A DNA stretch of 64,000 nucleotides from Candidatus Sumerlaeota bacterium (GTDB lineage Bacteria; Sumerlaeota; Sumerlaeia; JADFCW01). The translations under genes were made by a program, and so were the position numbers. Positions 2,955 through 53,694 of the stretch are shown in pieces. The stretch is from contig JADFCW010000002.1 in NCBI GenBank assembly GCA_017161705.1, positions 4,528 to 68,527 of the forward strand, written 5' to 3'. The notes under the pieces were generated by a model, which saw nothing but the letters and a program-made list of their open reading frames with translations, ran no database searches and was not told the origin of the DNA. Numbering within the stretch: the first letter of the stretch is position 1; each line of letters begins with the position of its first letter.

Positions 2955-3235
2955 GCTGCAGCGCTCTGAGGGAGGGTGGGAAGTCAGGAGCGAAGGGCGT
3001 GGCGCTCGAACTAAACGAGGTACTTTTTCATCTGCTTAAATAGGCATTGAAGTCCAACATCTGCGGCAAGGCTTTGGCTGGCCAGACGTCGCTGCCCAGA
3101 TTCGCATGGTTGCCCTGGAGCGAGACAAAGCGGGTTGCCCTTGCAGCACTTTGGGCAAGGGCAATCAGCACGGCCAGGATCGTCCTCCGTAGACAGCGAC
3201 GGACCCGCCGCACCGTAAGCCTCTTTTTCTTTCTA

Positions 3236-4405
3236 CTAAAACTTCTGGTTTTCATCCGGACCGGGTGTAGCGTAAGCGGGATCCTTGGCCCGGATATACA
3301 CATCGCCGTCGCCAAGAGTCTTCACATCGAGCGGCACAATGGTCGTGCCGCGCGGATTGATCGTTTGCGCATTGTCGCGCAAGTCGCGGCGTTCGATGCC
3401 CTCCCGCGGAAGCGGCGGGACATTGGCGTTGAAGAAGGCCGTGCACCACCACTTGCCGTCGCGGGTCTGGAACGGTGTACCGTGGCCCAGAAAGCGGCCG
3501 ACAAAGCGTCGCGGCCCATAGGGGCCTGTGATGCGGTCGGCCGTGCAATAGTAAAGATTATACGAGCCCTTGCGAAGCCGGTCGGTGGACCACGCCGTGC
3601 CAAAGTGAACGTATTTGCCGCCGATCTTCCGCATCGTTGCGCCCTCATGGCCGATTTGCGAAATCGGCTTGCCGTCGGGGCCCGGACGGGAGCCGGCAGG
3701 ATCAATGCGGACCGGCTCCGCCGTGAACTGCGTGAAATCTGCGCCGAGCGGAGCAACAAAAGTATTGCCCCAGAGCATATACCATGTGTTGCCATCCTTG
3801 AAAAGCGACGGGTCGTGCTTGCGGCCGAGCCTGTCGCCGAGAGGATGAGTCCACGGTCCTTTCAATTCTTGGCCGGTGGTCAGGGCGAAGTTGGCCTTGT
3901 CGGCCGGGCAGTGCACGAGCGCCCAGCGGTTGCCCAGCCAGTGAAGTTCCGGTGCCCAGACCAGACTACCCGGCTCCTTATGCCAGCTGTCCTCGAGGGT
4001 GAACGGCGTGCCGAGGTAGTCCCAGGCGACAAGGTCCTTGCTGCGCCAGACTTGGACGGCGGAACCCACAATGGAGTCCTTGCCCAGGCCGATATTGTAG
4101 GGATCGGTTTTCTCGCGTGCATCGTTCGGATTCGGCGTGGTGCCGGTCAAATAGTAGAAATCGTCGGGACCGAGGATAATATACGGATCGCGAATCCAGC
4201 CTTGCTTGATATAGAGCGCGCGGTCATGGGACTTTAACCCTGCCTCAATTTCAGCACGCGGCATGGCGGGTGCAACGCCGGGCGGCAATCGGGGACCTGA
4301 GGCCTTTGCCCCGCGTGCCTCTTCAGCGAACGAGTAAAACCAGCCGGCCGTGGCCACTTCCAAGGTTGCCAGGGCGGACACCAGAAAAAAGCGACGTCGT
4401 TTCAT
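3236..4405 (-). CDS. Glycoside hydrolase family 43 (beta-xylosidase/arabinofuranosidase-like), secreted
   Basis: Start trimmed to MKRRRFFLVSALA (signal peptide) with an AGGGAG RBS. The mature N-terminus DPYIILGPDDFYYLTGT is the typical GH43 opening. Confidence 0.8.
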   Translation of the reverse strand: MKRRRFFLVSALATLEVATAGWFYSFAEEARGAKASGPRLPPGVAPAMPRAEIEAGLKSHDRALYIKQGWIRDPYIILGPDDFYYLTGTTPNPNDAREKTDPYNIGLGKDSIVGSAVQVWRSKDLVAWDYLGTPFTLEDSWHKEPGSLVWAPELHWLGNRWALVHCPADKANFALTTGQELKGPWTHPLGDRLGRKHDPSLFKDGNTWYMLWGNTFVAPLGADFTQFTAEPVRIDPAGSRPGPDGKPISQIGHEGATMRKIGGKYVHFGTAWSTDRLRKGSYNLYYCTADRITGPYGPRRFVGRFLGHGTPFQTRDGKWWCTAFFNANVPPLPREGIERRDLRDNAQTINPRGTTIVPLDVKTLGDGDVYIRAKDPAYATPGPDENQKF

Positions 4406-6286: not shown

Positions 6287-8608
6287 TCACGGCGCAAACG
6301 GCCTGTCGCCGCGCGAGGCCGCCTTCGGGTCCAGTTGGATCGTTCCCGGTTTCCACTCGCGCGCCAGCGCAATATCCTGCTCGACTTTCGCCGTCAACGC
6401 CGCGCGGTCCACAAAACCGACGCGATTGAGCAGTTGCGGTTTGTATTGCGCGTTGGCAATCGCCGCGTAGCGTTTCCAGTGCTCGAGGGCCGCTTCGAGA
6501 TGCTTGACCGCGGAATCGCGCCGGTCGGTCTTTCCCGTGGCATCAAAAAGAGCCAGGTCGGCGGCGCCGAGAATCTTCTCGCTGTAGTAAAGCCCGATGT
6601 GGGCGAACGCCTCGATGTCGCCGAGCGTCAGGCGCAGTTCCTTGTTCCCGCCCTGCAGCGGCCTGAGCCGGGCCGCGCCGGCCAGAGCCTCTTCGGCCAG
6701 CGCCCGCAGCCGGCCGGCCACTTCGATCGGCGTCATGCCGTCCATAGGCCGCTGCGCCAGAACCCGCTCTCGCCATTGCCGGATGTTCAATATGCCGCTT
6801 TCGGGCATCGTATCGCCCTCGATGAAGTGGCGCACGGTATAAAAGCCCTTGTGCCGCGGATGGCTGAGGCACGCCTCGGGCATCCAGCGAATGTCAATAT
6901 CGCCCCAAAAGAAGCGCGTGATCTGGGGGAAGATTTTCGAGGCCGCCGCCCAGGTCTTCATCAATTGATCGGCCGGCACCTCGGGAAACCGCACGGCAAT
7001 CGTTCGCTCGAACAATGCATCGGGAAGCGTCGGATCATAGCTCAGCCGTCCCCACAGCATGAAACTATACCACTGCTTCTGCATGACCAGTTGGCGCGGC
7101 GTTTCGGGCTCGCGGTCTATAAACTCGCGGCCCCAACAGTAACCGTCGGGACCCATGTAGAAACCGGCCATCTTGTCAGGGCCGGGCATGGCGCGGATGA
7201 AGCCGCGGGCAAATTCTGGGTCGCCCCAACGGAAACTGTAGATATCGTCGTTGCGCACGGTCAGCCACGTCCGTTTATCCGGCGGCAGTTCGGGCAGCAG
7301 CGATTTGATGAACGGCGGATTAGTGACGGAATACATGTGCGCGATGGCGTATTTGAAGCTGAAGTCGAACGGTCCGGGATAATCCTTCCATTCGCGCAGG
7401 ATTTCGCTTTGGCCCGTCTGATGATAGCGGTGAATCAGGCGGAATGGCCGGCCGGGTTGAAGCGCCAGAGCGTCGCGGATCCCCTCGCCGTAAGTCTTCC
7501 AAAGCCATTTTTCTTTGGAAAACTCGTCTTTGCGGTTTTGCATTCGCTCCCCGGCCGTAATGCCGATGCCGGCGAGGAGCGGATACGTGAGAACGGTCTC
7601 GCGTACGCTTTTGCGGAAGTAGTCAATCGTAATCGGATTGTCCTGCTCCCCTGTAATGCCGTGCTTGCCTTCGGCGCCCCAGACAAACATGTTCCACGTG
7701 AACCAATACACCTCGATGCCGCGGTCGCGGGCGCGCTGCATAACCTCGCGCCAGAAGCGAATTTTCTCGCCGATTGTCATCCGCTTGACAATTTCGACGT
7801 CCTTGAGCATGGCCGGCCGAACCATGTCGCTCCCGCTCCCGGAAAACGTATCGTCCAGAGGCGCGCGGGTCCGCCAGACATCGTCGAGCGCCACCTCGGG
7901 ATACTCAGGGACTTTGACCAGCGACGGGAACGGATGCAGATTCCAGAGCGTGAGCACATTATAGCGGTGGCGCGCCATTTCATCGAGAAACTCGCGCCAG
8001 AAATCCATGCTCCACATCTCCGGGATATTCGCCTGAAACGAATCGCTGCAGTCGGAGTAACTGGGCGTTCGCAGATCGAGCGGGATGTTGAACTTGATGC
8101 CGCGCCGCGCAATATAGGGCGTGTGGTCGCCGTCTTTCAGGTCGCTCAACGTCCCCAAGCGGATCGCTTCGGCCAGATCGAGCGCGCCATACATGGCGCC
8201 GACAGGGTCGGCGGCAAACACAATATAGACGGGCGCCGGGCCGCCCGTTTTTCGCAAGGAGTAGGCCTGAGCGGATTCGAAAGATGGAGTGGAAGGTATG
8301 GACAGAGCTGCGGGGAGCGGGACGGCCAGACGCTGCGCGGCGCGCTGGCACTGGCCGGAGCCGGCGGCGAGAACAAAGCACGCGCCAGCCCCGCCCGCTT
8401 TGTCGAGGTCGGCCAGATCGCGCTCGACCAGCGAGAGGTTTTGCGCCGCCAGCGCGCGCCGGATCTCCGAGGCTGCAAACTGCAAGGGCGGCATTGTTGA
8501 ATCGCAAAACAGAATCGCGTTCGAGTCTTTGACCGAAGGCGCGCTTTGGGCAAGTTCGGCAGACACTGCCAGAGCAAGCGCCATCGCAACAGGGAAAAAG
8601 CATTTCAT
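6287..8608 (-). CDS. Secreted putative glycoside hydrolase, TIM-barrel-like, family not assigned
   Basis: Start trimmed to MKCFFPVAMALALAVSA (signal peptide). Large 773 aa protein with a hydrolase-like core (NVLTLWNLHPF, YWFTWNMFVWG). The upstream 60 codons of the track ORF lack a signal peptide and an RBS. Confidence 0.6.
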   Translation of the reverse strand: MKCFFPVAMALALAVSAELAQSAPSVKDSNAILFCDSTMPPLQFAASEIRRALAAQNLSLVERDLADLDKAGGAGACFVLAAGSGQCQRAAQRLAVPLPAALSIPSTPSFESAQAYSLRKTGGPAPVYIVFAADPVGAMYGALDLAEAIRLGTLSDLKDGDHTPYIARRGIKFNIPLDLRTPSYSDCSDSFQANIPEMWSMDFWREFLDEMARHRYNVLTLWNLHPFPSLVKVPEYPEVALDDVWRTRAPLDDTFSGSGSDMVRPAMLKDVEIVKRMTIGEKIRFWREVMQRARDRGIEVYWFTWNMFVWGAEGKHGITGEQDNPITIDYFRKSVRETVLTYPLLAGIGITAGERMQNRKDEFSKEKWLWKTYGEGIRDALALQPGRPFRLIHRYHQTGQSEILREWKDYPGPFDFSFKYAIAHMYSVTNPPFIKSLLPELPPDKRTWLTVRNDDIYSFRWGDPEFARGFIRAMPGPDKMAGFYMGPDGYCWGREFIDREPETPRQLVMQKQWYSFMLWGRLSYDPTLPDALFERTIAVRFPEVPADQLMKTWAAASKIFPQITRFFWGDIDIRWMPEACLSHPRHKGFYTVRHFIEGDTMPESGILNIRQWRERVLAQRPMDGMTPIEVAGRLRALAEEALAGAARLRPLQGGNKELRLTLGDIEAFAHIGLYYSEKILGAADLALFDATGKTDRRDSAVKHLEAALEHWKRYAAIANAQYKPQLLNRVGFVDRAALTAKVEQDIALAREWKPGTIQLDPKAASRGDRPFAP

Positions 8609-8967
8609 GGGAGAAACCTTTCTGGGTGTAGTATTGGACAAACGTCCGAGCTGTTGCCGTTTCCCGTCTTTACGTTTTTCTTTCCACAGCCGGTAGGATG
8701 CTAAAGTTTGCCAATGACAGGCAGTCAAGCAAGAAATCGCTGTGCAACTCTCCGCAGGCGATGCACTGTTCTGATTCCTGCCTCCCATATCGTTATTGCA
8801 ATTTACCGAGCGTCTGACCTATCCTTGTTCTTGGATAGATCCTCCTAACGTGGCCTTCGGCTATAACCAAAAAGATTTTCGCCAGAGAGCTAGATCTCAA
8901 GATTGAAAAAGGGCGGCCGTAAAAACCAGGCCGATAGGTTGTCATGCGATGAAGCGTTACAGAAAAA

Positions 8968-8986
8968 GCGGCAGCAGGGCTGCCGC
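8968..8986 (-). terminator. Terminator-like hairpin 1 of repeat copy 2 (GCGGCAGC-AGG-GCTGCCGC), T-tract on the minus strand
   Basis: Perfect 8 bp GC stem preceded by AAAAA on the plus strand, which reads TTTTT after the hairpin on the minus strand. Confidence 0.45.
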
Positions 8987-9039
8987 TCTCCAAAGATTTT
9001 GCTCTGATCCGGCAAAGCAGAATGCTTTTGCTTTGGACT

Positions 9040-9062
9040 GCGGCAGCCATGCCGCCGCTTTT
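9040..9062 (+). terminator. Terminator-like hairpin 2 of repeat copy 2 followed by TTTTGCCCGACAA
   Basis: GCGGCAGC-CAT-GCCGCCGC stem with one mismatch, followed by TTTT. Confidence 0.45.
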
Positions 9063-9217
9063 GCCCGACAAGCTTCGACGCACCCAACGTAGCCCGGAGA
9101 TCTAACCCGACACTTGGGATGTTCTAGAAAGATGCACACAGTTGGGCTCGATCTTTTGCCAAAAAAGTATATACGCAATTGCCTTTCCATTCAAGTCAAA
9201 ACCAAGGAGGCCCTTCC

Positions 9218-11113: not shown

Positions 11114-12064
11114 ATGCCCTCGCCTTCGGCGACAATCTCCGAGACGCGCAGCAGGCAGATTTTCATCGGCCCCGCGGGCTGGAGTTATGAGGACTGGGAG
11201 GGCGTGGTGTATCCGCCGAAACCGCCGCGCGGCTTTCTCCCGCTGGGGTTTTTGGCCCGCTACTTCAATGCGGTGGAAATCAACACAACCTTTTATCATC
11301 TCCCGCCGCCGAGCCATTGCCAGAAGTGGATTTCGGCAATCGAGCCTTTCGAGGGCTTTCTTTTCACGATCAAACTCTGGCAGGAGTTCACACACATTCG
11401 AGCAAGGCTCGATTCGGCCGCCCTCCGGCGCTGGCATGCGGCGATGGAGCCTTTTCGCCGCGCCGGACGCCTGGGCGCCGTCCTCGTTCAATTCCCCTGG
11501 TCGTTCAAGCGAACGCCGCCCAATGCCCGCTATCTCGAACAGCTGGCCGACGCCCTGGCGCCGGACCCTCTCGCCATCGAAATGCGCCACGACACCTGGA
11601 ACCATCCCGACTATCTGGCATGGCTGCGCGAGCGCGGCCTCGCTTTCTGCAACATTGATCAGCCGCAGCTCGAAGGCTGCCTGCCGCCGACGGACCATGT
11701 CACCGCGCCCATTGCCTACGCCCGCCTCCATGGCCGCAACGTCGGCAATTGGTTCCGGGAAGGCGCCGGAGTGATCGAGCGCTACAACTATCTCTACTCC
11801 AACGAGGAACTCAGCGATTGGAAGGAGCGTTTCCGCCGGCTGATCGAAAAGGCCGAGAAGGTGTTTGTCATTACCAACAATCATACCGAAGGCCGCGCCG
11901 TGGCCAACGCATTGCAAATCCGTGCGATGCTGAGCGACGCGAAAGTGGCCGCGCCGCCCTTGCTGGTTCGGCGCTATCCCCAGATTGCGGAATACGTCTC
12001 ACCGCCGCCGGACGAGGCGGAAACCTCTCCGCCGGGCGAAGCGGAACAACTGTCGCTGCTGTAG
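11114..12064 (+). CDS. DUF72 (YecE-like) family protein
   Basis: N-terminal IFIGPAGWSYEDW and NAVEINTTFYHLP match the DUF72 signature. Confidence 0.75.
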   Translation: MPSPSATISETRSRQIFIGPAGWSYEDWEGVVYPPKPPRGFLPLGFLARYFNAVEINTTFYHLPPPSHCQKWISAIEPFEGFLFTIKLWQEFTHIRARLDSAALRRWHAAMEPFRRAGRLGAVLVQFPWSFKRTPPNARYLEQLADALAPDPLAIEMRHDTWNHPDYLAWLRERGLAFCNIDQPQLEGCLPPTDHVTAPIAYARLHGRNVGNWFREGAGVIERYNYLYSNEELSDWKERFRRLIEKAEKVFVITNNHTEGRAVANALQIRAMLSDAKVAAPPLLVRRYPQIAEYVSPPPDEAETSPPGEAEQLSLL

Positions 12065-12106
12065 GGAATCCGGCATGCAAGACGGAAGAGACCGCGCTGC
12101 CGGCGC

Positions 12107-12850
12107 TTACGATGCCGGTTTGCGCAACAAGGCGACCAGACTAACGCCGAAAGGAAAATCCATCTGTCGCAGCCAGCGAGCCTCCAGATTCAGCAGTCCG
12201 ATCAGCAGCCGATTCAATTCCTGTGGAAGTCGGATGAGGTGAGTCTTGGGTTTTCCGCGCGGTTTCAACGCCCGTTGAACCAACCGGAATACAGCAATTG
12301 GCGGTAGCAGAAGTGTGATGGCCGACGTGAACCGGATGACCTGGAAGTCGCTGGTTTGGATCAGCGACCAGAAGGATGTGCGTGTATAGCGTCGCCGGTG
12401 ATGCAGCGCCTCGTCATGCTCGCTCCAAAGAAATGGATAGGCCGGAACGGTGATCAGGAGATGTCCGCCGGGCCGGCAAACTCTGGCCAGTTCGGCCAGA
12501 AGCGCCCGGTCGTCGTCTATGTGTTCGAACAGATCGAGCGCGAGCAGAAGATCGAACTGCGCGCTGCGAAACGGAAGCGTTTCGACGCGTGCACACACAA
12601 GCCGGTCGAGGCCTCGCTGGGTGCAGAACTGCATGGCCCGGGTCGAGAAATCCACGCCAACAGGCCGGCCAAACGGACGGAGGGCTTCGAGCAAAAGACC
12701 CGTGCCACAGCCGACGTCCAGCATGGCCAGCGGCCGGAGACCCAACGGTGTGTGATGTTTGAGCAGCTCGAGAACAATTTGCTTTCGGCCCTGAAACCAC
12801 CAGTAGGTGTTTTCGAGGGAATACATTCGCTCATATTCTTCGGCGCGCAT
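12107..12850 (-). CDS. Class I SAM-dependent methyltransferase
   Basis: Glycine loop [10 protein letters not shown], acidic LDLFEHI motif, GGGAGG RBS. Confidence 0.75.
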
Positions 12851-13188: not shown

Positions 13189-14407
<1,219 letters not shown>

Positions 14408-14502
14408 TTCGCCGCGACACAGCGATCGAAAGAAGGGTTTTCATCTCCCTCAATCGCGATGCGGGAAACCGCCCCGCTGGCTTTCTGAAAAACGCAGCAC
14501 AC

Positions 14503-14599
14503 GAAAGTGTGAACGACATGCAACCCAGTGAAGATTGAATTACCAACAGCACACTAAAGTGTGAACTACAAACGGCAAACTGAAGTTTGAACTACGAGC
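14503..14599 (-). repeat. Inverted copies (about 2 units) of the GTAGTTCA/CTTCAG repeat
   Basis: The reverse complement reads GCTCGTAGTTCAAACTTCAGTTTGCCGTTTGTAGTTCACACTTTAGTGTG..., nearly identical to the tandem unit at 53570-53673. Confidence 0.65.
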
Positions 14600-19558: not shown

Positions 19559-19602
19559 TTTGGAGTCGGATGTGATCGGTATGCCGTTCATGCTACATGC
19601 AG

Positions 19603-19650
19603 AGCACACTTCAGTTTGCCGCACGTTCCCCACTCTTCAGTGCGGAACCG
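19603..19650. repeat. Solo copy of the ACTTCAGTTTGCCG motif immediately upstream of the LamG-like gene
   Basis: CACTTCAGTTTGCCGCACGTTCCCCACTCTTCAGTGCGG. A 13-mer is identical to the tandem unit at 53570 and is followed by a second CTTCAG. Lies 25-70 bp before ATG 19674. Confidence 0.4.
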
Positions 19651-21559: not shown

Positions 21560-22126
21560 ATGAAATGCCGTTGCTTGCTGGTGATGCTCGTTGCTGCCGT
21601 TCTCGGCATGGCGTGTAAGCGGATAAAGGTCGAACAGAAGAATATCTCCGATCGGCAAGCCGCCGCGGCATTGGCGCCGGCAGCGGATGCGCCGCCTGCC
21701 GCCCAGGAGACGGCGCTAGCGAAGAACAACGATGAACCGCTGTTGCTCCTCGACAATGGGCCGGACGACAAGCCCTCTACAGGGCCGGTTGCCGATAACA
21801 GCCGCTGCCACGTCTGCCATCTGAACTTTGAGCAAGAACCCCTGGCGCTCTGGCACGCACGTGCCAATGTCAGCTGCGCACAATGCCACGGCCCGTCGGA
21901 TGCACACATTGCCGACGAGTCGTGGGCCTCGGGCGGAAACGGCACCGCTCCCGACATCATGTATTTGCCGCACCAGATCAACCCCTCGTGCATGGAATGC
22001 CACCCGAAAGAGAAGCTTGCCGCCGGCGCGCGTTGCCTTTTCGCCTCGGCACCGGACGACAAAAAAAACTGTACCGATTGCCACGGCAAACACCGCATGG
22101 CCAGCCGCCGGTGTAAATGGAAATGA
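21560..22126 (+). CDS. Tetraheme c-type cytochrome lipoprotein
   Basis: Four CxxCH motifs (CHVCH, CAQCH, CMECH, CTDCH). Lipobox LGMAC. Confidence 0.75.
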   Translation: MKCRCLLVMLVAAVLGMACKRIKVEQKNISDRQAAAALAPAADAPPAAQETALAKNNDEPLLLLDNGPDDKPSTGPVADNSRCHVCHLNFEQEPLALWHARANVSCAQCHGPSDAHIADESWASGGNGTAPDIMYLPHQINPSCMECHPKEKLAAGARCLFASAPDDKKNCTDCHGKHRMASRRCKWK

Positions 22127-22329
22127 GGCGGACCGTAAATGGGCAATTAACGCCGGAAATTCGCAACGCGAAAGCGCATGCGCATCCCGCTTGACTTTGA
22201 GTGAATTGCCGCCTGCTATCTTTTGCGTAACCCGCTTTGCCAGAGGGCTAGATCTCAAAATTGAAAAATTCCAAGGCGGCCGTAAAAGCTAGGGCAATAG
22301 GTTGTCTTGCGATGACCCCATATAGCAAA

Positions 22330-22348
22330 GCGGCAGCATGGCTGCCGC
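22330..22348. terminator. Hairpin 1 of repeat copy 3 (GCGGCAGC-ATG-GCTGCCGC)
   Basis: Perfect 8 bp GC stem. Confidence 0.4.
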
Positions 22349-22401
22349 ACTCCAAAACTTTTGGCCTGATCCGGCAAGGCGAAATGCTTCTGCTTTGGAC
22401 T

Positions 22402-22424
22402 GCGGCAGCCGTGCTGCCGCTTTT
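22402..22424 (+). terminator. Hairpin 2 of repeat copy 3 (GCGGCAGC-CGT-GCTGCCGC) followed by TTTTGCCCGACAA
   Basis: Perfect stem plus T-tract, 280 bp after the cytochrome stop and 175 bp before the PhoD-like start. Confidence 0.5.
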
Positions 22425-22597
22425 GCCCGACAAGTTCCGACGCACCGAACGTAGCCCAGAGATCTAACCCGACATGGGATGTTCTAGAAAGATGCACGCA
22501 TTTGGGCTAAATCTATAAGCGAAAGAATCTAAAAGCCATTTGCATCAAAAAAAGCCCGGAGCACCGCCAGTCTTATTTTGATGAAAGGAGCATTGTC

Positions 22598-24166
22598 ATG
22601 CCCGGAAGGAAATGTCTCGCACACGGTCTTGTCGCCTCGGTTCTCGCCGGTCTCCTGTTGTGCAACCCCTGTTTCGCCGGCAAGGCCAGGAAACCCAAAA
22701 ACACCCCTGCCACAGAGGCAACCACGGCGACAAAACTTACGCCCGAGCAGATCGAAAAGACTAAACCCACCAAAGCCGGCACACTCGAAGATAATTTGCG
22801 GCTGCTGAACCAGTGGGTCCAGCAAAGCGATCTGGTCAACCGCCTTTACACCGCCGCATACAAGGTGCTTGCGGCGAAGCTTGACGCGACGTTTATGGAT
22901 GTTGCCAACGACACCGACGTGCAGGCTATCTGCCGCGACAACGGCATCGTCCATTTCGGCGGCCCGATGTTAGGGTCGGTCACGCCGGACGGCGCGCGCG
23001 TGTGGGTGCGAACGGTTCGGCCGGCCAAAGTCGAGGTGCGCGTGACCGTGGACGGCGCCGAAAAAACCTTCGGCCCCGTCGAAAGCACGCCGGAAAGCGA
23101 TCTCAGCGCCGTCGTGCCGGTCACCGGCCTCAAACCCGGTCAGCGCTATCCCTACCGCGTGTTCGTGGACGGCAAACCGATCCCTGTTCCCGACCATGCC
23201 GCAATCACGCCTTGTCCGCGCACCGATGCACCCGGCAAAGTGCGTATTGCATTTGGCAGCTGCTATCACCGCTGGGGAATCGGTAACATGCGGCAGGCGG
23301 AGATGATCCGGCGGCGCGAGCCGGCGGCTCTCCTGCTTCTGGGCGACATCGCCGTACAGGACCGCAACAATCATGTTGGACTCCATCGCGCCGACTATCT
23401 CCAGCGCGACTTCCAGCCGGCCTGGCGCGACCTGACCGCAGCCGTTCCCGTCTTCGCCACGTGGGATGATCATGACTACTTTGACAACGACCTGTTCGGC
23501 ATTCCGAAAGGCTTCACACGCGAGGACCAGATCCGGATCTGGGAAGTGTTCCGGTGGGCATGGAACAATCCGTCCTACGGATTCGGCGACGAGCGGCGCG
23601 GCGTGTTCCTGCGCACGCGAATCGGCCCGTGCGACGTGATCATGGTAGACGGGCGTTTTTTCCGCGAAGGCCGGAAAGGCTCCTATCTGGGCGACGACCA
23701 GATGAAGTGGCTGGAAACGCAGCTGCTCGACTGCAAAGGGCCCTTTATCATTTTGTCCAACGGTACAATGTGGAGCGACTATGTGTCGGACGGAAAAGAT
23801 TCGTGGGGACGGTGGGACCCGGAAGGACGGGAGCGGCTGTTCAGCCTGATGGAGAAAAACCGGGTCGCAGGCGTCTTGATGATTTCAGGCGACCGGCACG
23901 GCGCGCGCGGGTTCCAAATCCCGCGCCCGTCCGGCTTCAATTTCTATGAATTCGAGGCAGGCAGTTTGGGCGGTCGAAGCGGCCCGCCGGTAACCATTCC
24001 CGGCGCGCCGCAGCTCTACGGGATCGCCGATACCTATGCATTCGGGGAATTCACCATTGACGCCACGGTGGCCGACCCGACCGTCGAGTTCCGGTTGATC
24101 GGCGAGGATGGAACGATTATCTATGAAACCAAATTGACACGGAGCCAGTTGACACCGCGCGGATAA
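22598..24166 (+). CDS. PhoD-like phosphatase/phosphodiesterase (calcineurin-like metallophosphoesterase)
   Basis: AAAGGAG RBS, lipoprotein-like signal, and metallophos motifs (LLGDIAV, WDDHDY, GDRHG). Confidence 0.8.
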   Translation: MPGRKCLAHGLVASVLAGLLLCNPCFAGKARKPKNTPATEATTATKLTPEQIEKTKPTKAGTLEDNLRLLNQWVQQSDLVNRLYTAAYKVLAAKLDATFMDVANDTDVQAICRDNGIVHFGGPMLGSVTPDGARVWVRTVRPAKVEVRVTVDGAEKTFGPVESTPESDLSAVVPVTGLKPGQRYPYRVFVDGKPIPVPDHAAITPCPRTDAPGKVRIAFGSCYHRWGIGNMRQAEMIRRREPAALLLLGDIAVQDRNNHVGLHRADYLQRDFQPAWRDLTAAVPVFATWDDHDYFDNDLFGIPKGFTREDQIRIWEVFRWAWNNPSYGFGDERRGVFLRTRIGPCDVIMVDGRFFREGRKGSYLGDDQMKWLETQLLDCKGPFIILSNGTMWSDYVSDGKDSWGRWDPEGRERLFSLMEKNRVAGVLMISGDRHGARGFQIPRPSGFNFYEFEAGSLGGRSGPPVTIPGAPQLYGIADTYAFGEFTIDATVADPTVEFRLIGEDGTIIYETKLTRSQLTPRG

Positions 24167-32200: not shown

Positions 32201-33177
32201 ATTTTCATTGCGCCGAAGAGATTCAACGCTTGCAGACCAAAAACCTGGAGCGCGCGCGCGACGAGGAGACGTTGCGCAAGATTGCCGCGCTACAGCCGGT
32301 CGCTCCGCCCCCGCATGACCGCCAAGCGGTCGCGCGGATTTTCGAGCGCCTGACCTGGCAGTATGCCGCACGGCCGCTGACGCGCATTCGCGGAAAAATG
32401 TCGGTGTCCGAAATCAAACGGCGGTTCGAGACCGGGCGCGAAAGCGACGAGGCATTGAACGGGTGGGGCAGACAGGCAATAGCCCGCCGACCGGCGTTCA
32501 TGGCTGCGGGAACCGGCACGGCGCCCGTACTAACGGCCTCCGAGATTGGCACGGCCACACATACAGTGTTGCGCCATTTGGACCTATCGCAGCCGCCCGA
32601 CGAGGCAACGGTGCGCAGCCAGATAGCGCAGATTGCGGCGGAGGGAAAGCTCGCTGCCGCCGAGGCGGCGTGCGTGGATGCAGCAGCCATCGCCCGGTTT
32701 CTCCAGTCGCCGATAGGAACAGAAATTCGCGGAGCGCCCCATCGCGTGCAGCGCGAGATGCCGTTCAGCCTGGCGGTGCCGGCGGCCGAGATTGCGCGGC
32801 TGGAGAGGAGGCTGTCCAGCGAAATCAAGTCTAACGGGTCGGACGGGTCAGATGAGTCGGACAGGTCAGACAGCTCGGACCCCTCAGACAAATCCGATAG
32901 GATTTTTTGCAACGAGTGGGTCCACGTCCAGGGGATCGTGGACTGCTTGTTCGAGCGGCCGGAGGGGTTTGTGCTGTTGGACTTCAAGACCGACCGCGTC
33001 GAACGAGACACGGCCGAAACACGCGCCGCATTTTACCGTCCACAAATGGAGTTTTATGCCCGCGCGGTGGAAACGATTTTCCGCCGGCCTGTGGTCGAGC
33101 AAGTGCTTTACTTTCTTTCCTGCGGTGTGGCAGTGTCCATGCCTCCGAGGGACGGAGAGCGGTTTGGGAGATTTTAG
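29212..33177 (+). CDS. AddA-like UvrD-family helicase fused to a C-terminal PD-(D/E)xK nuclease
   Basis: Walker A AASAGTGKTAVL, UvrD helicase motifs, C-terminal nuclease motif GIVDCLFE...LLDFKTD. Acidic inserts and a DGSDESDRSDSSDPSDKSD low-complexity repeat. No addB-like gene is adjacent. Confidence 0.8.
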   Translation: MGKEPMSWTAAQRRAIETRGADLLVAASAGTGKTAVLVERCIRLVTDPIAPIDLDRLLVVTFTEAAAAEMRNRIGEALHRQIAQHPADARLRRQLMLLDRAMISTLHSFAFRIIQEHFFRLGLDPNLAVLDPDEALLLRHETLDDVFEALYTSESETGQRFVRLIERYGKDGDDAPVRSAVLNLWEFLRSLPRPEQWKRQVLDSYPKPDEAPPPFERLRRWYEPFVAALRENMLQIESDLRAAAQWVYDADPSTRGYTQFFRDVADEMAKLRATLQTNGYDAFHEAIGKWEYPKLRTNPAVADDFMQQVRARNDKIREAKKTLFKNWCVLSGAQWAETLRATRADVEMMFELVERFDAAFARVKRERGEVDFGDLERFCFDLLCDKAASEGDRYAPSEVARKELRDRFEAVLVDEYQDINPLQDAIIRLCARENDPQRPPNLFMVGDVKQSIYRFRLAEPKLFLQRLAAFRSEGGAGIGQRIDLSENHRSRPGLLAAINALCSRIMSPEVGGIVYDSAAELRGGFDFPKESSGDIPPPVTGLPVEVHFFDRAREETISESETTAESTEVDEEEPRDGSEAGALAGAAVPPDELEEIEIEAHWVARRIRAMLSGEFSVWDRGEGRYRPVARRDIAVLLQTAAYKAALFVRILQAHGIPAYTDIPPGKLQPAEIRDLFALLELLDNPCQDIPLAAVLRSPLVRLSEDDLARIRIHRRESSFFSAARAYCESGPEEPLRRRLGEFFDRLDRWRTLARRGPLARALWAIYDETGYLDYVTAMDGGAQRRANLIGLYDRARQFDEFRRRGLARFIQFVRQLQETENQLATPPAVSEADDVVRVMSIHKSKGLEFPVVFLPDIGKNFNFQNTREDVVTDRDLGVALRAVVPRRKIKYPTVAHAVASRQVKREILAENIRLLYVALTRAREKLVLCGSVKLDKALQAWRQCAVAGNDGRIALSPGVLASARSFSDWIGPALARLGCLGDPAHQPPPSDTLFAVHFHCAEEIQRLQTKNLERARDEETLRKIAALQPVAPPPHDRQAVARIFERLTWQYAARPLTRIRGKMSVSEIKRRFETGRESDEALNGWGRQAIARRPAFMAAGTGTAPVLTASEIGTATHTVLRHLDLSQPPDEATVRSQIAQIAAEGKLAAAEAACVDAAAIARFLQSPIGTEIRGAPHRVQREMPFSLAVPAAEIARLERRLSSEIKSNGSDGSDESDRSDSSDPSDKSDRIFCNEWVHVQGIVDCLFERPEGFVLLDFKTDRVERDTAETRAAFYRPQMEFYARAVETIFRRPVVEQVLYFLSCGVAVSMPPRDGERFGRF
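32848..32885 (+). repeat. Hexamer (TCGGAC/TCAGAC) tandem array inside the addA-like coding sequence, left arm of an inverted pair
   Basis: GTCAGATGAGTCGGACAGGTCAGACAGCTCGGAC encodes the Ser-Asp repeat. Confidence 0.6.
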
Positions 33178-33202: not shown

Positions 33203-33240
33203 CAAAGTCCGACCTGTCCGACTTGTCCGACTCGTCTGAC
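33203..33240 (-). repeat. Right arm of the inverted hexamer-array pair (GTCCGAC x3 to x4) in the addA-larA-like spacer
   Basis: The reverse complement GTCAGACGAGTCGGACAAGTCGGACAGGTCGGAC is about 85% identical to 32848-32885. Confidence 0.6.
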
Positions 33241-47500: not shown

Positions 47501-48238
47501 ATGCTCAGTCACCTGTCGCTCAGCTATCGGTTGGCCGTAACCCTCTTGTTAGTCAATCTGGCGTTGGGATTGCTGTTCCTCCATGTGAAGGTGCGCGAAA
47601 CCATCGCAGTCAAAGACGAGTCGCCTGGTCTTTCCATGGACGATTTGCGCTTGCACTTTCAGGGCGACCCCACCGTCAACCGCCTGCAATTCATGATGCG
47701 CGGTCGTATGCACGATAAATTTGCGAGCCCCGACGAGATGGACGTTATTCTGGAGTGGATTGCCCAGGGCGCAACGCGCGAAGGCTATGAAAGCGATGTG
47801 GCGCCGATCCTCGCCCAACAATGTATCAGCTGTCATGGGCCCGAAGGCGAGCAATCCAGATGCCCCCTCACATCCTATGAGCAGGTGGTCCGCTATACCC
47901 AGATGTTAGACACCGGCATCTCGTATGAGACGCTGGCCGATGCTTCGCCCCTCTATTTGGTCGGTCTCGCCACCATGGCTGCGTTGATGGGCTTGGTGTT
48001 TTACGCCACCCGCTGGCGCGGTCGGTGGAAGGGCGTGCTGATCGCGTTGCCGCTGTTCTGCGCCGCCGCCAACGTATTGTCCTGGTGGTCGGCAAAACAG
48101 TCCGACTTCTTCACCTGGTTGGTTTATATGACCGGCCTGGTTTATGGCTTGGTAGTGATTGCAATGATTCTGATAACGCTAATAGACTTGTGGATTTTGG
48201 CGGAGGAAAAACCGGCCTCCCTGCCCAGCAAGTCCTAG
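47501..48238 (+). CDS. Membrane-anchored monoheme c-type cytochrome domain protein
   Basis: GGAGG RBS 7 nt before ATG 47501. N-terminal TM helix, CISCH heme motif in the periplasmic segment, two to three C-terminal TM helices. Confidence 0.55.
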   Translation: MLSHLSLSYRLAVTLLLVNLALGLLFLHVKVRETIAVKDESPGLSMDDLRLHFQGDPTVNRLQFMMRGRMHDKFASPDEMDVILEWIAQGATREGYESDVAPILAQQCISCHGPEGEQSRCPLTSYEQVVRYTQMLDTGISYETLADASPLYLVGLATMAALMGLVFYATRWRGRWKGVLIALPLFCAAANVLSWWSAKQSDFFTWLVYMTGLVYGLVVIAMILITLIDLWILAEEKPASLPSKS

Positions 48239-50346
48239 CGATTCTCCGCCGGTTCTTTCAGCGGCGCGATCCACAGACCATACGGCACGCCCGGCCGCAA
48301 TTCAAAGACCGCGTGTCGCCGGCACAGCTCGATAAACTCCAGAATGACCGTCATCGTCTTGGGGTCAAGACGCGGGTCTTGCTGAAACGGCGGATAAAAC
48401 GGCGCCAGCCGGCGCGCTTCGCGAATATCGCCCGCGGCGGCTTCGAGCAGCGGTTCGAGGCTGGGCAGAGTCCGCGGGGTGTAGGTCCCCACAATTCGCC
48501 GCAATTCAAATTCGTTCACATATAAATAATCAAAGCCCTCCTCTTGCAGCCGACCGAGCAGCTGGCTGCTCGACTCCATACCCGCCGCATAGTCTGCCAG
48601 CGGGCTGCGATCGAAAACCGAACCGACACTCACGCGGCGCTCGAAGCACCCGATCCGCGCTTCGTAGAGCAGAAAGATCCGTGCATCCGGCGTCGTGCGC
48701 TCGTTGACAAACCTCTGGCTTGCCACCACGTCGGGACCGAGCGCCCATTCCAGAACTTCCAAACGCGGGGTCGTGGAAAAAAGATGCATCGCCAACGCCG
48801 GCGCCGACGGCCCTTCCGCCGCTGTGGGAAAGCCGATCCGACCCACAGCCGACGCCGGAACTTCTCCCTTCGCCGGATTGAACAGGCCCAGAAGCGCCGT
48901 TCCGATCCACAGGACGAAAGGCGCGGCCGCGCACGCGCGCCACGGTTTGCCGCTGCCCGGAATACCCTCGATCGCCCATGCGGCAAGTGCCGCCGCTGTC
49001 GGCAGAAACACCAACATGAAGCGGTCGGGATTCTTGGGGAAAACACTATGCACCAGCAGGCCCAGCACCCATGCGACGATTAGGCAATGATAGGCCATAT
49101 CCCGACGGCGGGTCCAAAGCCCCAATCCCAGGACAGCCGCGAGCCACCAGCCCATGCCGGTCAAATTTTTCAGCACCGAGCGCCAGTAAGTCGCCTCGCC
49201 GGGATTCGTGCGGCCATGCGCCGCCATATAGAAGTCCGTCTGCTCCGGCGACCAGTTTTCGGTCGGAAACCACCTTGCCAGCAGCGGGTACACCGGATTG
49301 CCATGGTGGACGGCATTTTTGGCTGCCCATGGCCCAAAAACAACGCCAACCATCAGAAAGAAAAGAAAAAAGGAAATAACAGGTCCACTCCATCCATAAC
49401 GACCACCGCGTCCATTCTGCCCATCCCGTCCATACCCTCCCCACCCCCTCACGCATCCCGCTCCCAGCAACACCGCAGCTGCCGGAAAAACCACCAGTCC
49501 CGCCGCGGTGTATTTGCAGCAGACCGCCAGGCCCAAAAAAATCGCCCAGAGATAAAAAAATCTCTGCTCGTTCCTTTCAAACCACCGAAGCCACGCCAGC
49601 ACCGCCAGCGCCGAATACCACGCAACGCCTTGATCGTTCAGCGCATCGGCCGCTGTCTTGAGACTGATCGGATGGATCGCAAACAACAGACAGGCCAGAA
49701 GCCGCAGTGCCCGCTCTCGGCACCCGACCGCGCTGATGGCATATACGGCGGCAATGTTGGAGACATAGACGCCGAAGTTGATCCATTTGGGAACAGCCGG
49801 CAGAAGCGGATTGCCTTCCGCAAAACACCCAAGCGCATACCACATCTCGACCTCGAACGGCAGCGCGGCGTAGAACAACCGGGGAAACGCAACGATTCGC
49901 CCTTCGCGCAACCAGTGCTGAACCGCACCCAGATGATATTCGAGCACGTCGTAGTTAGCCGGCGGCGGAATCGCCCGCAAGCCCACGCAGAACACAGCAA
50001 GAGCCAGAGCAATCAGGGCGAGAACTTCGATTGGCGTTTGCGGGGTTGCCCATAGCCGCAGGCGCAGCGCAACGGTTCGGGAAAGGTATCCTGCTGTCGC
50101 CGCGAGGAGAAACAAGACCGCAAGAATCGCAAAGCCGTTCGCGCGCCAACCGCCCGCGAGTCCCAGCAGCAGCGTCGCGTGGGATAGAATCCCCATGCCG
50201 AGGCCCAGTGCAATACAGTGCAATTCCAGCGGCGTCTGGAATCGCGCACGCAAGCACTGAAGAACGAGCCGCCCGACTCCAGCCCCCGCGGCAAAAATCA
50301 CAAGGCCAACAAGGATTGCGTAGAGCGTTGGGACGAGAATGATCAT
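48235..50346 (-). CDS. Polytopic membrane glycosyltransferase-like protein (GT-C fold, ArnT/PMT-like)
   Basis: 703 aa with at least 12 TM helices and a few loops. The GT-C-like topology is a tentative reading. Confidence 0.55.
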   Translation of the reverse strand: MIILVPTLYAILVGLVIFAAGAGVGRLVLQCLRARFQTPLELHCIALGLGMGILSHATLLLGLAGGWRANGFAILAVLFLLAATAGYLSRTVALRLRLWATPQTPIEVLALIALALAVFCVGLRAIPPPANYDVLEYHLGAVQHWLREGRIVAFPRLFYAALPFEVEMWYALGCFAEGNPLLPAVPKWINFGVYVSNIAAVYAISAVGCRERALRLLACLLFAIHPISLKTAADALNDQGVAWYSALAVLAWLRWFERNEQRFFYLWAIFLGLAVCCKYTAAGLVVFPAAAVLLGAGCVRGWGGYGRDGQNGRGGRYGWSGPVISFFLFFLMVGVVFGPWAAKNAVHHGNPVYPLLARWFPTENWSPEQTDFYMAAHGRTNPGEATYWRSVLKNLTGMGWWLAAVLGLGLWTRRRDMAYHCLIVAWVLGLLVHSVFPKNPDRFMLVFLPTAAALAAWAIEGIPGSGKPWRACAAAPFVLWIGTALLGLFNPAKGEVPASAVGRIGFPTAAEGPSAPALAMHLFSTTPRLEVLEWALGPDVVASQRFVNERTTPDARIFLLYEARIGCFERRVSVGSVFDRSPLADYAAGMESSSQLLGRLQEEGFDYLYVNEFELRRIVGTYTPRTLPSLEPLLEAAAGDIREARRLAPFYPPFQQDPRLDPKTMTVILEFIELCRRHAVFELRPGVPYGLWIAPLKEPAENR

Positions 50347-50375: not shown

Positions 50376-50430
50376 TTCTAACTTCACATGTCAGCAGGTT
50401 GTTTGTAGTTTCGGCTTCAGCAGGGCCGTT
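50376..50430 (+). repeat. Degenerate solo unit of the GTAGTTCA/CTTCAG repeat
   Basis: AGTTCTAACTTCACATGTCAGCAGGTTGTTTGTAGTTTCGGCTTCAGCAGG is roughly 70% identical to the 52 bp unit. Confidence 0.4.
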
Positions 50431-50658
50431 GCCTCACGGCGCGCACAAATTCTTTCGTTTAAAGATATAGCATAGCCAAGAGGCCTGTATCTTTATGGAG
50501 CATCCCATGTTTGGTTGGGGTTGGACGCCGTGCTCAGTGCGTCGAAACTTGTCGGTGCCGTATGGGTTCATCGCGCGACAAACTATGACCCCGGCCTTTA
50601 CGGGCAGCGGTCATGCGGGTCTGCATGGATCTGCGCTCCCATAGGCTCTTGCCTTGCC

Positions 50659-51213
50659 TCATTTCCCCTTCCCGACCGCCGCACGCACGCGTGATTCTGC
50701 CTCCGGCGTCCAGTAAGCGCAGTCCAGCTCAAGAAAAACCGACGTATAAGGCAGTGTCGAGTTGCTCTTGAGAACCAGCACGCGATACATCTCGCCGGCC
50801 TTGTCGAGCCTGGCCAGAATCTCCTCGTGCGGCAGCGTCTTGACGGTTCGTTTGGCAAGGATCTTGCCCAACACTTCCCGGTGCGCAGTGATTCCCGGCG
50901 CGTCGGTGGCTGAAACATGCTCGAGTTCGGCGTCGAGATAAACGACGGGTTTGACATGCGGCATTTCATCGAGCGCCTCCAGCACGCCGGCGACCAGGTC
51001 CAGATGATCCTCGCCGGTGACGAAGGTCTCGATCCCCGGGCGACTTTGCGCCGGATAGGCCGAGTCGGCGATCACAATCCAGTTTCGGTGGCCAAACAGA
51101 AACAGATCGGTCTTGAGTGCGTCCTTCCAGGGGCCGGCGGCGCATCCGGCCAGAAGAACCCCGGCGGCCAGCGCGGCAAGAACTCCCCGAATCCGGCGAT
51201 GAGCGGTTGACAT
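50659..51213 (-). CDS. RbsD/FucU-family sugar mutarotase-like lipoprotein
   Basis: Lipobox LLAGCAAG. FGHRNWIVIADSAYPAQS matches the RbsD/FucU signature. Confidence 0.6.
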   Translation of the reverse strand: MSTAHRRIRGVLAALAAGVLLAGCAAGPWKDALKTDLFLFGHRNWIVIADSAYPAQSRPGIETFVTGEDHLDLVAGVLEALDEMPHVKPVVYLDAELEHVSATDAPGITAHREVLGKILAKRTVKTLPHEEILARLDKAGEMYRVLVLKSNSTLPYTSVFLELDCAYWTPEAESRVRAAVGKGK

Positions 51214-53519: not shown

Positions 53520-53694
53520 GTAGCGAACTTCAGTTTGCCGTTCGTAGTTCACGCTTCAGCGTGTTGTATGTAGTTCAAACTTCAGTTTGCCGTTCGTAGT
53601 TCACGCTTCAGCGTGTTGTATGTAGTTCAAACTTTAGTTTGCCGCTCGTAGTTCACGCTTCAGCGTGTTGTATGTAGTTCAAACTTCAGTTTGC
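53520..53694 (+). repeat. Tandem array: 52 bp unit x about 3.4, each unit made of two 26 bp half-units
   Basis: GTAGTTCAAACTTCAGTTTGCCGTTCGTAGTTCACGCTTCAGCGTGTTGTAT repeated with 1-3 substitutions per copy. Not CRISPR, because no unique spacers separate the units. Confidence 0.85.

Follow-up and report, generated by a model that had tools for sequence, protein, structure and literature searches.

A mosaic intergenic repeat family of a Candidatus Sumerlaeia genome and its hairpin module shared with uncultured phages

Repetitive extragenic palindromic (REP) sequences and bacterial interspersed mosaic elements (BIMEs) are defined by an extragenic palindromic unit of 20 to 40 nt that forms a stem-loop, with a conserved GTAG tetranucleotide 5′ of the foot of the palindrome, and they occur in hundreds of genome copies in association with the gene of a REP-associated tyrosine transposase (RAYT), a Y1/HUH transposase (PMC3333891). 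The subject here is a ∼300-nt repeat in the intergenic regions of a 64-kb stretch of Candidatus Sumerlaeota bacterium DNA (contig JADFCW010000002.1), referred to in full as the window; the copy at 8845-9172 is the locus first reported. We estimate a probability of about 60% that this locus is a copy of a lineage-specific, non-coding, mosaic REP/BIME-like family of intergenic repeats in a Candidatus Sumerlaeia genome, with hairpins that can act as terminators. The evidence so far requires no new mechanism. To our knowledge, no repeat, terminator, or regulatory signal has been described from Sumerlaeota, a phylum without a cultured member, and the family and its hairpin motif, which is unexpectedly shared with phages, are the first to be described for an uncultured phylum. 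The family and the 35-nt motif, with its covariance model, are now searchable across Sumerlaeota; if they represent only an analogue of REP/BIME, this is useful annotation and no surprise.

The ∼300-base repeat is a real dispersed, non-coding family and not a set of ordinary independent terminators, as the preliminary description of the window had argued. Alignment of whole intergenic regions gave the edges of three collinear copies, c1 (760-1017), c2 (the reported locus), and c3 (22236-22532), at about the positions proposed there. The invariant 18-mer GCCGCTTTTGCCCGACAA occurs three times in the window against a chance expectation of 0.14, and the hairpin GCGGCAGC-N3-GCTGCCGC occurs five times against an expected 0.13, each time within c1 to c3. 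The family is larger than the three copies first counted: nhmmer, run with filters off and a profile of c1 to c3, found a fourth, more diverged copy (c4) on the minus strand at ∼50445-50640 (E = 2.7e-14, and 5.1e-44 after the profile was rebuilt). All four copies in the 64 kb are intergenic (nhmmer E values from 1e-112 to 1e-14), and neither profile nor covariance-model searches found a fifth in the window. A conserved open reading frame (ORF) was rejected as an explanation, none being common to the copies, and the concatenated six-frame translations of c1 to c3 matched nothing at an E value of ≤10 among 5.8 billion proteins.

Each element consists of two directly repeated arms, U and D (∼80 to 120 nt each), around a variable central cassette that carries two (c2 and c3), one (c1), or no (c4) copies of a hairpin module, H. 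Each arm opens with a small hairpin, CTAACGTGGCyTTyGGCCAC-AACCAAA, and closes with a GAAAGAATCTAA-like sequence. The internal direct repeats noted earlier are supported in c1, where the U-versus-D score of 21 was reached by 0 of 200 shuffles, and are only suggestive in c2 and c3. H is a 35-nt module of the form CAAAAG-GCGGnnnn-loop-nnnnCCGC-ACTCCAAAG, in which CAAAAG is followed by an 8-bp GC stem with a 3-nt loop and then by CACTCCAAAG. In c2 and c3, two inverted H units with 37 nt between them provide a 30-nt inverted repeat (93% complementary) that folds as one long hairpin. Relative to these copies, c1 has a clean 72-nt deletion between two GCGGCAGC repeats, leaving one chimeric hairpin between A4 and T4, and c4 is without the entire cassette, CCCATACGGCA being joined there to CCGACAAG. 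The first account, of perfect 8-bp hairpins in every copy, each between an A-tract and a T-tract, needs amendment on both points. Four of the five hairpins are perfect, the second unit of c2 has an A.C mismatch (9040-9058), and c4 has no hairpin. The A4/T4 flanks were confirmed for the c1 hairpin, whereas a single unit of c2 or c3 lies between an A-tract and (A/T)(C/G)TCCAAAG, and A and T tracts flank the inverted pair as a whole, not each unit.

H is a module in its own right and is constrained in its structure. Viral collections were scanned with the hairpin plus tail (24 specified bases, for which well below one chance match was estimated), with the flanks, and with the flanks plus closing pairs, and H was found, alone or as a pair, in eight IMG/VR contigs. 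Seven of these loci represent one related phage family, 75 to 85% identical in many segments and in one case with a terminase; the eighth is an unrelated 51-kb contig with an inverted H pair, of which the reverse unit lies 5 nt past a stop codon, in terminator orientation. The H unit is the sole sequence common to the viral contigs and the bacterial DNA: the U and D arms are in none of the eight, and arm cores gave only chance matches in viral contigs. H is absent from GenBank records of cultured phages. All cells (100%) pair across 19 aligned H units, and the covariation score of 0.165 compares with 0.067 for shuffles (reached by 0 of 500) and at most 0.054 for slid controls. Compensatory changes occupy stem positions 5 and 6 (C-G to G-C, A-U, and G-U; A-U to G-C), a twentieth unit (locus L087, position 13115) adds another double change, and two H units at matching positions in related phages differ in a compensatory manner. 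Little or no variation is seen in the outer four pairs, GCGG/CCGC, or in the flanks CAAAAG and CACTCCAAAG. The occurrence of H in both host chromosomes and one uncultured phage family provides a possible sequence-based link between phage and host. H is also a candidate site of protein binding.

Comparison with relatives places the repeat in a setting of unstable gene order. Proteins encoded near the elements have 90%-identical relatives labelled Candidatus Sumerlaeia bacterium in the metagenome-assembled genome (MAG) GCA_026415575.1, and a 10.8-kb syntenic block is 83.5% identical between the window and this sister MAG. The LamG/aldo-keto reductase/cytochrome c block is 84% identical, and the stop codon of cytochrome c is the exact end of homology; there, c3 starts in the window and a corresponding element, r1, starts in the sister. 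r1 has two H units in an arrangement opposite to that of c3 and weakly similar arms. In a relative at 76% identity, 87 nt separate cytochrome c from the next gene, and the site is empty. The genes downstream of cytochrome c differ in all three genomes compared, so that at the sole comparable site the element coincides exactly with the point at which relatives cease to share gene order. tblastn of element-flanking proteins against the relatives' loci found no orthologues, which limits the cross-genome comparison to the c3 site, and most genes next to the elements are without relatives at ≥90% identity. The loci of PhoD orthologues (L056 to L059) contain neither an element nor synteny.

A second element of the sister MAG, r2, shares the U-H-D order of c1, with which it is collinear over ∼230 columns at 70% identity. 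r2 contains an assembly gap, and the c3 homologue is cut off at the end of a Logan contig (SRR27723350) from a near-identical strain; both fit a multicopy repeat. Elements that interrupt two assemblies and lie where gene order breaks bear on genome plasticity and on the quality of MAG assembly in this group. Within genomes, identity is 86% for c2-c3, 79% for c1-c2 and c1-c3, and 80% for r1-r2. Between genomes, H alone is well conserved (94 to 100%), and the arms reach at most 74%, although the syntenic DNA is 83.5% identical. Copies are therefore closer within than between genomes, which indicates spread or homogenization inside each genome rather than vertical conservation of a regulatory region.

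The likeness to REP, BIME, and REPIN sequences of Proteobacteria (PMC3333891; PMC8049555) extends from H being a GC-rich palindromic unit of 20 to 40 nt outside genes to its occurrence in mosaics with other short motifs, a variable number of units, a stem that varies yet keeps pairing, and an ability, putative for H, to act as a terminator or mRNA stabilizer. With a length of 35 nt, a stem of 8 bp, and a loop of 3 nt, H pairs in 19 of 19 units, all extragenic, and it forms inverted pairs in both arrangements, with the tails inward and 37 nt between the arms in c2 and c3 and the opposite arrangement in r1 and at locus L094. The REP-like nature suggested by the preliminary description is consistent with the size of H, with its single or paired units, and with its conserved structure and constant flanks. 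In contrast to REP sequences, GTAG is missing: the constant flanks of H are CAAAAG (6 nt) and CACTCCAAAG (10 nt), and the 5′ flank on the other strand is CTTTGGAGT. Further, the stem of H is perfect and that of REPs imperfect, and host H was seen only inside a ∼300-nt element with directly repeated arms of ∼100 nt, while H is also found in phages. Although H behaves in the manner of a REP, it is better not classed among them, given that it lacks the defining GTAG.

Two other modular repeat systems are comparable in part. Like the BOX elements of Streptococcus pneumoniae (PMC3049150), the present elements are modular, intergenic, and non-coding, with conserved end modules and zero to n central modules. 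They differ in that their arms are direct repeats, in the lack of any sequence similarity, and in belonging to a different phylum. The end modules of BOX, boxA and boxC, are complementary to each other. The PeSL cassettes of T4-like phages (PMC2839356; PMC4122927) are likewise short and conserved stem-loop cassettes of composite structure that recur between genes, and they also lie at junctions of differing gene content between close relatives, as c3 and r1 do downstream of cytochrome c at the single site compared. PeSLs have been proposed to mediate modular shuffling by recombination (PMC2839356; PMC4122927). Unlike the present copies, PeSLs have a recognizable early promoter and are confined to phages, whereas the family described here is in a bacterial chromosome and shares only H with phages.

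If the locus belongs to a REP/BIME-like family, we infer that copies spread, or stay alike, inside each genome through recombination or a copy-and-paste process. The agent would be either an enzyme of the REP/RAYT type that recognizes hairpins or, between copies, homologous recombination together with replication slippage. The number of hairpins could have fallen from two to one to none by deletion between the repeated GCGGCAGC arms. Read as CUUUGGAGU-hairpin-UUUUG, H would form an intrinsic terminator, and an inverted pair would form a hairpin of ∼100 nt, with its A and T tracts outward, that may stop transcription from both sides. An element with such a two-sided stop would be a portable boundary of transcription units and a recombination hot spot at which genes are reshuffled.

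Several observations weigh against this reading. First, the sense-strand T-tract is just TTTTG and does not reach the ≥5 T in 8 required by a standard terminator scan, so that the bidirectional terminator previously proposed for each copy is only partly supported, the antisense side of c1 to c3 passing the scan and the sense side failing it; the hairpin is entirely absent from c4. Second, at five or more independent intergenic sites in phages the mRNA strand reads CAAAAG-hairpin-CACUCCAAAG, 8 to 45 nt (129 nt once) 5′ of the next start codon, which is the orientation without a U-tract. Termination is therefore not the sole role of H, and perhaps not its main role. Neither unit of r1 is followed by a good T-tract on the gene strand. 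Third, the copy counts cover only 64 kb of the source genome (four elements, five H units) and ∼60 kb of the sister MAG (three H units), and exact-pattern scans of public genome and metagenome collections for the 18-mer and element cores gave chance matches only (55 genome-contig loci; in metagenomes 0 and then 6). Fourth, no transposase or RAYT gene was seen among the partly annotated genes of the window and none was sought, and the proposed route of spread is pure inference. Finally, all four window copies and r1 aim at the start of the downstream gene, which a pure terminator leaves unexplained.

The last of these points would be explained by a portable promoter or 5′-leader cassette, in which the element, and the D arm above all, gives a promoter, operator, or 5′ untranslated region to the downstream gene, is copied before unrelated genes as a “mobile promoter,” and insulates them by its hairpin from upstream read-through. 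This is the main rival explanation, although we consider it rather unlikely. The window copies are oriented like the next gene, whose start codon lies 47 to 110 nt beyond their ends (290 nt for r1), c1 and c3 both stop exactly 66 nt 5′ of an ATG, and the downstream genes (BNR, TIM-barrel, PhoD, and PMT_2) are mutually unrelated. c2 lies between divergent genes, with nothing there to terminate, and phage H also precedes start codons on the mRNA strand. Co-directional (c1, c3, and c4) and divergent (c2) placements, two of the kinds named in the preliminary description, were found, but no copy in the window lies between convergent genes. Against this reading, agreement in orientation would arise by chance with a probability of (1/2)^3 for the three co-directional sites, and r2 appears to lie between convergent genes. 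No sigma-70-like promoter was found on either strand of any of the four copies, although promoter rules in Sumerlaeota may differ, and on direct reading of the sequence the spacings of candidate −35 and −10 boxes vary among copies. The arms also evolve faster than the adjacent coding and intergenic DNA at the matching site, which is unexpected for a conserved regulatory region. Putative mobile promoters (PMC3488235) are highly similar upstream regions before unrelated genes of one genome, as here; unlike them, the present element has no predicted promoter, also follows gene ends, and carries terminator-like hairpins. Sigma-54, ECF-type, and Bacteroidetes-type promoters were inspected by eye and are not conserved across copies.

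Another, distinctly unlikely role for H is that of a recognition hairpin for a protein, common to Sumerlaeia and their phages, that reads both sequence and structure; U-H-D elements would then be mobile cassettes at the boundaries of transcription units that actively drive the shuffling of gene order in this phylum. Recognition would depend on the constant flanks and the outer 4 bp and not on the inner stem or the loop, and candidates range from a DNA enzyme of the RAYT/HUH type and an RNA endonuclease to a factor for antitermination or translation. Pfam and PHROGs assigned no function to the phage ORFs beside H, except for the terminase at locus L074.

Returning to the ∼300 nt as a whole, it appears quite improbable that the copies are small-RNA genes of one family or that they form a structured RNA acting in cis. 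The hairpin stem covaries, whole-element c3 folds far more stably than shuffled sequence (z = −4.5 and −5.2), and RNAalifold reports some double changes in the stem GGTTGTC...GATGACC. However, this stability derives entirely from the inverted hairpin cassette, because c4, which has no hairpin, folds no better than shuffled sequence (z = −1.5 sense and −2.35 antisense), and covariation outside H is not significant with three to four sequences. There is no predicted promoter, conserved sequence reaches beyond the terminators on both sides, and the arms are poorly conserved between sister genomes. No named RNA family was recovered: Rfam (release 15) gave no match in the window at the gathering score, and permissive matches were at chance level, the best having 18 bits against a threshold of 80. 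The suggestion of a structured noncoding RNA of this length was therefore not upheld.

A classical MITE (miniature inverted-repeat transposable element), non-autonomous, with terminal inverted repeats, and dependent for movement on a transposase from another locus of the genome, had also been suggested by the placement of the copies. The element is small, non-coding, intergenic, and multicopy, has an internal inverted repeat, and is present in some relatives and absent from one. The suggestion is nevertheless very improbable, since the ends are direct repeats, inverted repeats are confined to the internal H units, and the copies vary by gain and loss of internal modules and not around uniform ends. 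No target-site duplication is common to the flanks of the four copies; CTAACGTG, found at both ends of c1 (760-767 and 1014-1021), is part of the repeated arm, because c2 starts identically.

A small-peptide locus, for example a type I toxin-antitoxin-like pair with overlapping convergent transcripts that end at the two hairpins, is scarcely credible. A 27-aa ORF, MLLLWTAAA(M/V)(P/L)PLLPDK(L/F)RRT(Q/E)RSPEI, with a hydrophobic N terminus and a charged C terminus, is intact and in frame in c2 (9022-9105) and c3 (22384-22467) and starts 27 nt past the forward H unit. It is absent from c1, c4, r1, and r2, five of its seven nucleotide differences between c2 and c3 are nonsynonymous, and it runs through the second H unit and the T-tract; the six-frame search described above found no homologue. 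The ORF is probably fortuitous. The MITE, whole-element RNA, and small-peptide readings, and that of a local duplication, each conflict with a feature that was tested; a local duplication would have been indicated by a lack of additional copies and of a covarying hairpin, both of which were found.

The window copies differ in detail and in their neighbors, which were named from Pfam. c2 (plus strand, 328 nt) has its U arm at 8845-8960, H1 at 8961-8995, a linker at 8996-9030, H2 at 9031-9065, and its D arm at 9066-9172. H1 is the forward unit AGAAAAAGCGGCAGCAGGGCTGCCGCTCTCCAAAG on the plus strand (54.6 bits with covariance model R1), and H2 is the inverted unit, on the minus strand, with the A.C mismatch given above (52.4 bits); on the plus strand it reads as a hairpin and then TTTTG. 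The flanking genes are divergent: a gene of unknown function on the minus strand (6287-8788) and, on the plus strand from 9218, a xylose-isomerase-like TIM-barrel enzyme with a Tat-type signal. c3 (plus strand, 297 nt) has a 5′-truncated U arm (22236-22322), a forward H1 on the plus strand (22323-22357; 52.5 bits), a linker, an inverted H2 on the minus strand (22393-22427; 54.7 bits), and a D arm (22428-22532), and lies between a multihaem cytochrome c gene ending at 22126 and a co-directional PhoD-like gene starting at 22598. A possible additional fragment of the U arm is located near c3, at 22127-22152.

c1 (plus strand, 258 nt) comprises a U arm (760-879), the single chimeric H (880-912; stem 887-905), and a D arm (913-1017). 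It is preceded by an ArsP-like permease gene ending at 751 and followed, in the same direction, by a BNR/sialidase-like gene starting at 1083. A lone half-hairpin, GCGGCAGC at 753-760, abuts its left end 2 bases past the upstream stop codon and may be a remnant of another H unit. c4, with no hairpin and a junction of CCCATACGGCA and CCGACAAGTTTCGACGCAC, lies between co-directional genes on the minus strand for an RbsD/FucU-like protein (50659-51213) and a PMT_2-like membrane protein (48235-50346). A DUS/USS-like uptake sequence was considered and rejected: GCGGCAGC occurs 13 times outside the elements, compared to ∼8 expected by chance in the whole window.

The order of genes in this region, which is devoted to glycan and phosphate scavenging, is highly fluid. 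PhoD and two sulfatases follow c3 in the window and are on two other contigs of the sister MAG, so that cytochrome c, PhoD, and the two sulfatases, adjacent in the window, are on three different contigs there. The PhoD-like gene (22598-24166) and its counterpart at locus L059 (3812-5380) in the sister have 86% nucleotide identity, which is restricted to the coding sequence, and wholly different neighborhoods. In the 980-nt intergenic region upstream of a sulfatase orthologue of the sister MAG, an isolated arm-hairpin fragment, CCAACTCGGCCTTTGGACACAACCAAAAGG (locus L071, 7615-7643), occurs with the rest of the element absent and is probably a decayed copy. A third repeat family adjoins r2 at 11990-12299 of locus L070 (GCA_026415575.1, JAOAGV010000091.1), with ∼128-nt units that are 91% identical and carry GCCCTGAAAGGGC hairpins. 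The 95-aa “hypothetical protein” N3D11_13410 that GenBank calls across these units is probably spurious, and a protein search with the 95-aa ORF called over r2 matched only itself.

Unrelated to the U-H-D elements is a second repeat family in the window, built of 26-nt units in tandem (52-nt period, 3.2 copies, 97% matches); in each unit GTAGTTCA precedes a 14-nt palindrome in which CAAACTTCAGTTTG alternates with CACGCTTCAGCGTG. It is found at 53526-53694, inverted at 14495-14595, and as single units at 14377-14408, 19597-19640, and, beside c4, 50399-50430. GTAG lies directly 5′ of its small hairpin, which is the REP signature missing from H. Tandem repeats of 9 and 18 nt (GTCGGAC/GGTCAGA types) at 32834-32880 and 33207-33240 form an inverted pair, 335 nt apart, that flanks the junction of a 1321-aa ORF (ending at 33177) and the next ORF.

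The phages carry a second type of hairpin, with a stem of 5 to 7 bp, a TGAAA-, TAAAG-, or CGGAA-like loop, and a tail of CC(A/C)CTACAAA(A)G. It was observed at loci L093 (∼215-875 and 3099-3130), L077 (∼4133-4164), and L087 (5985-6010), often directly after H, and a single intergenic region may contain several. Similar tails are present in H, as CACT(A/C)CAAA(A)G, and in the 26-nt family, as AACTACAAAC, and GGCCAC-AACCAAACAG, after the small hairpin of the U and D arms, is likewise similar; the second phage hairpin, H, the 26-nt family, and the arm hairpins may form one superfamily. Directly downstream of one phage H site (L088, 145-402; L087, 13158-13412) is a gene for an 85-aa protein that is 83.5% identical between two phages and whose N-terminal segment (MGTSGW..VVVFS.GAQ.VVFLRWMHRR...) is hydrophobic; at the position expected of its ribosome-binding site lies the H tail AAAGG(G/A)AAAC.

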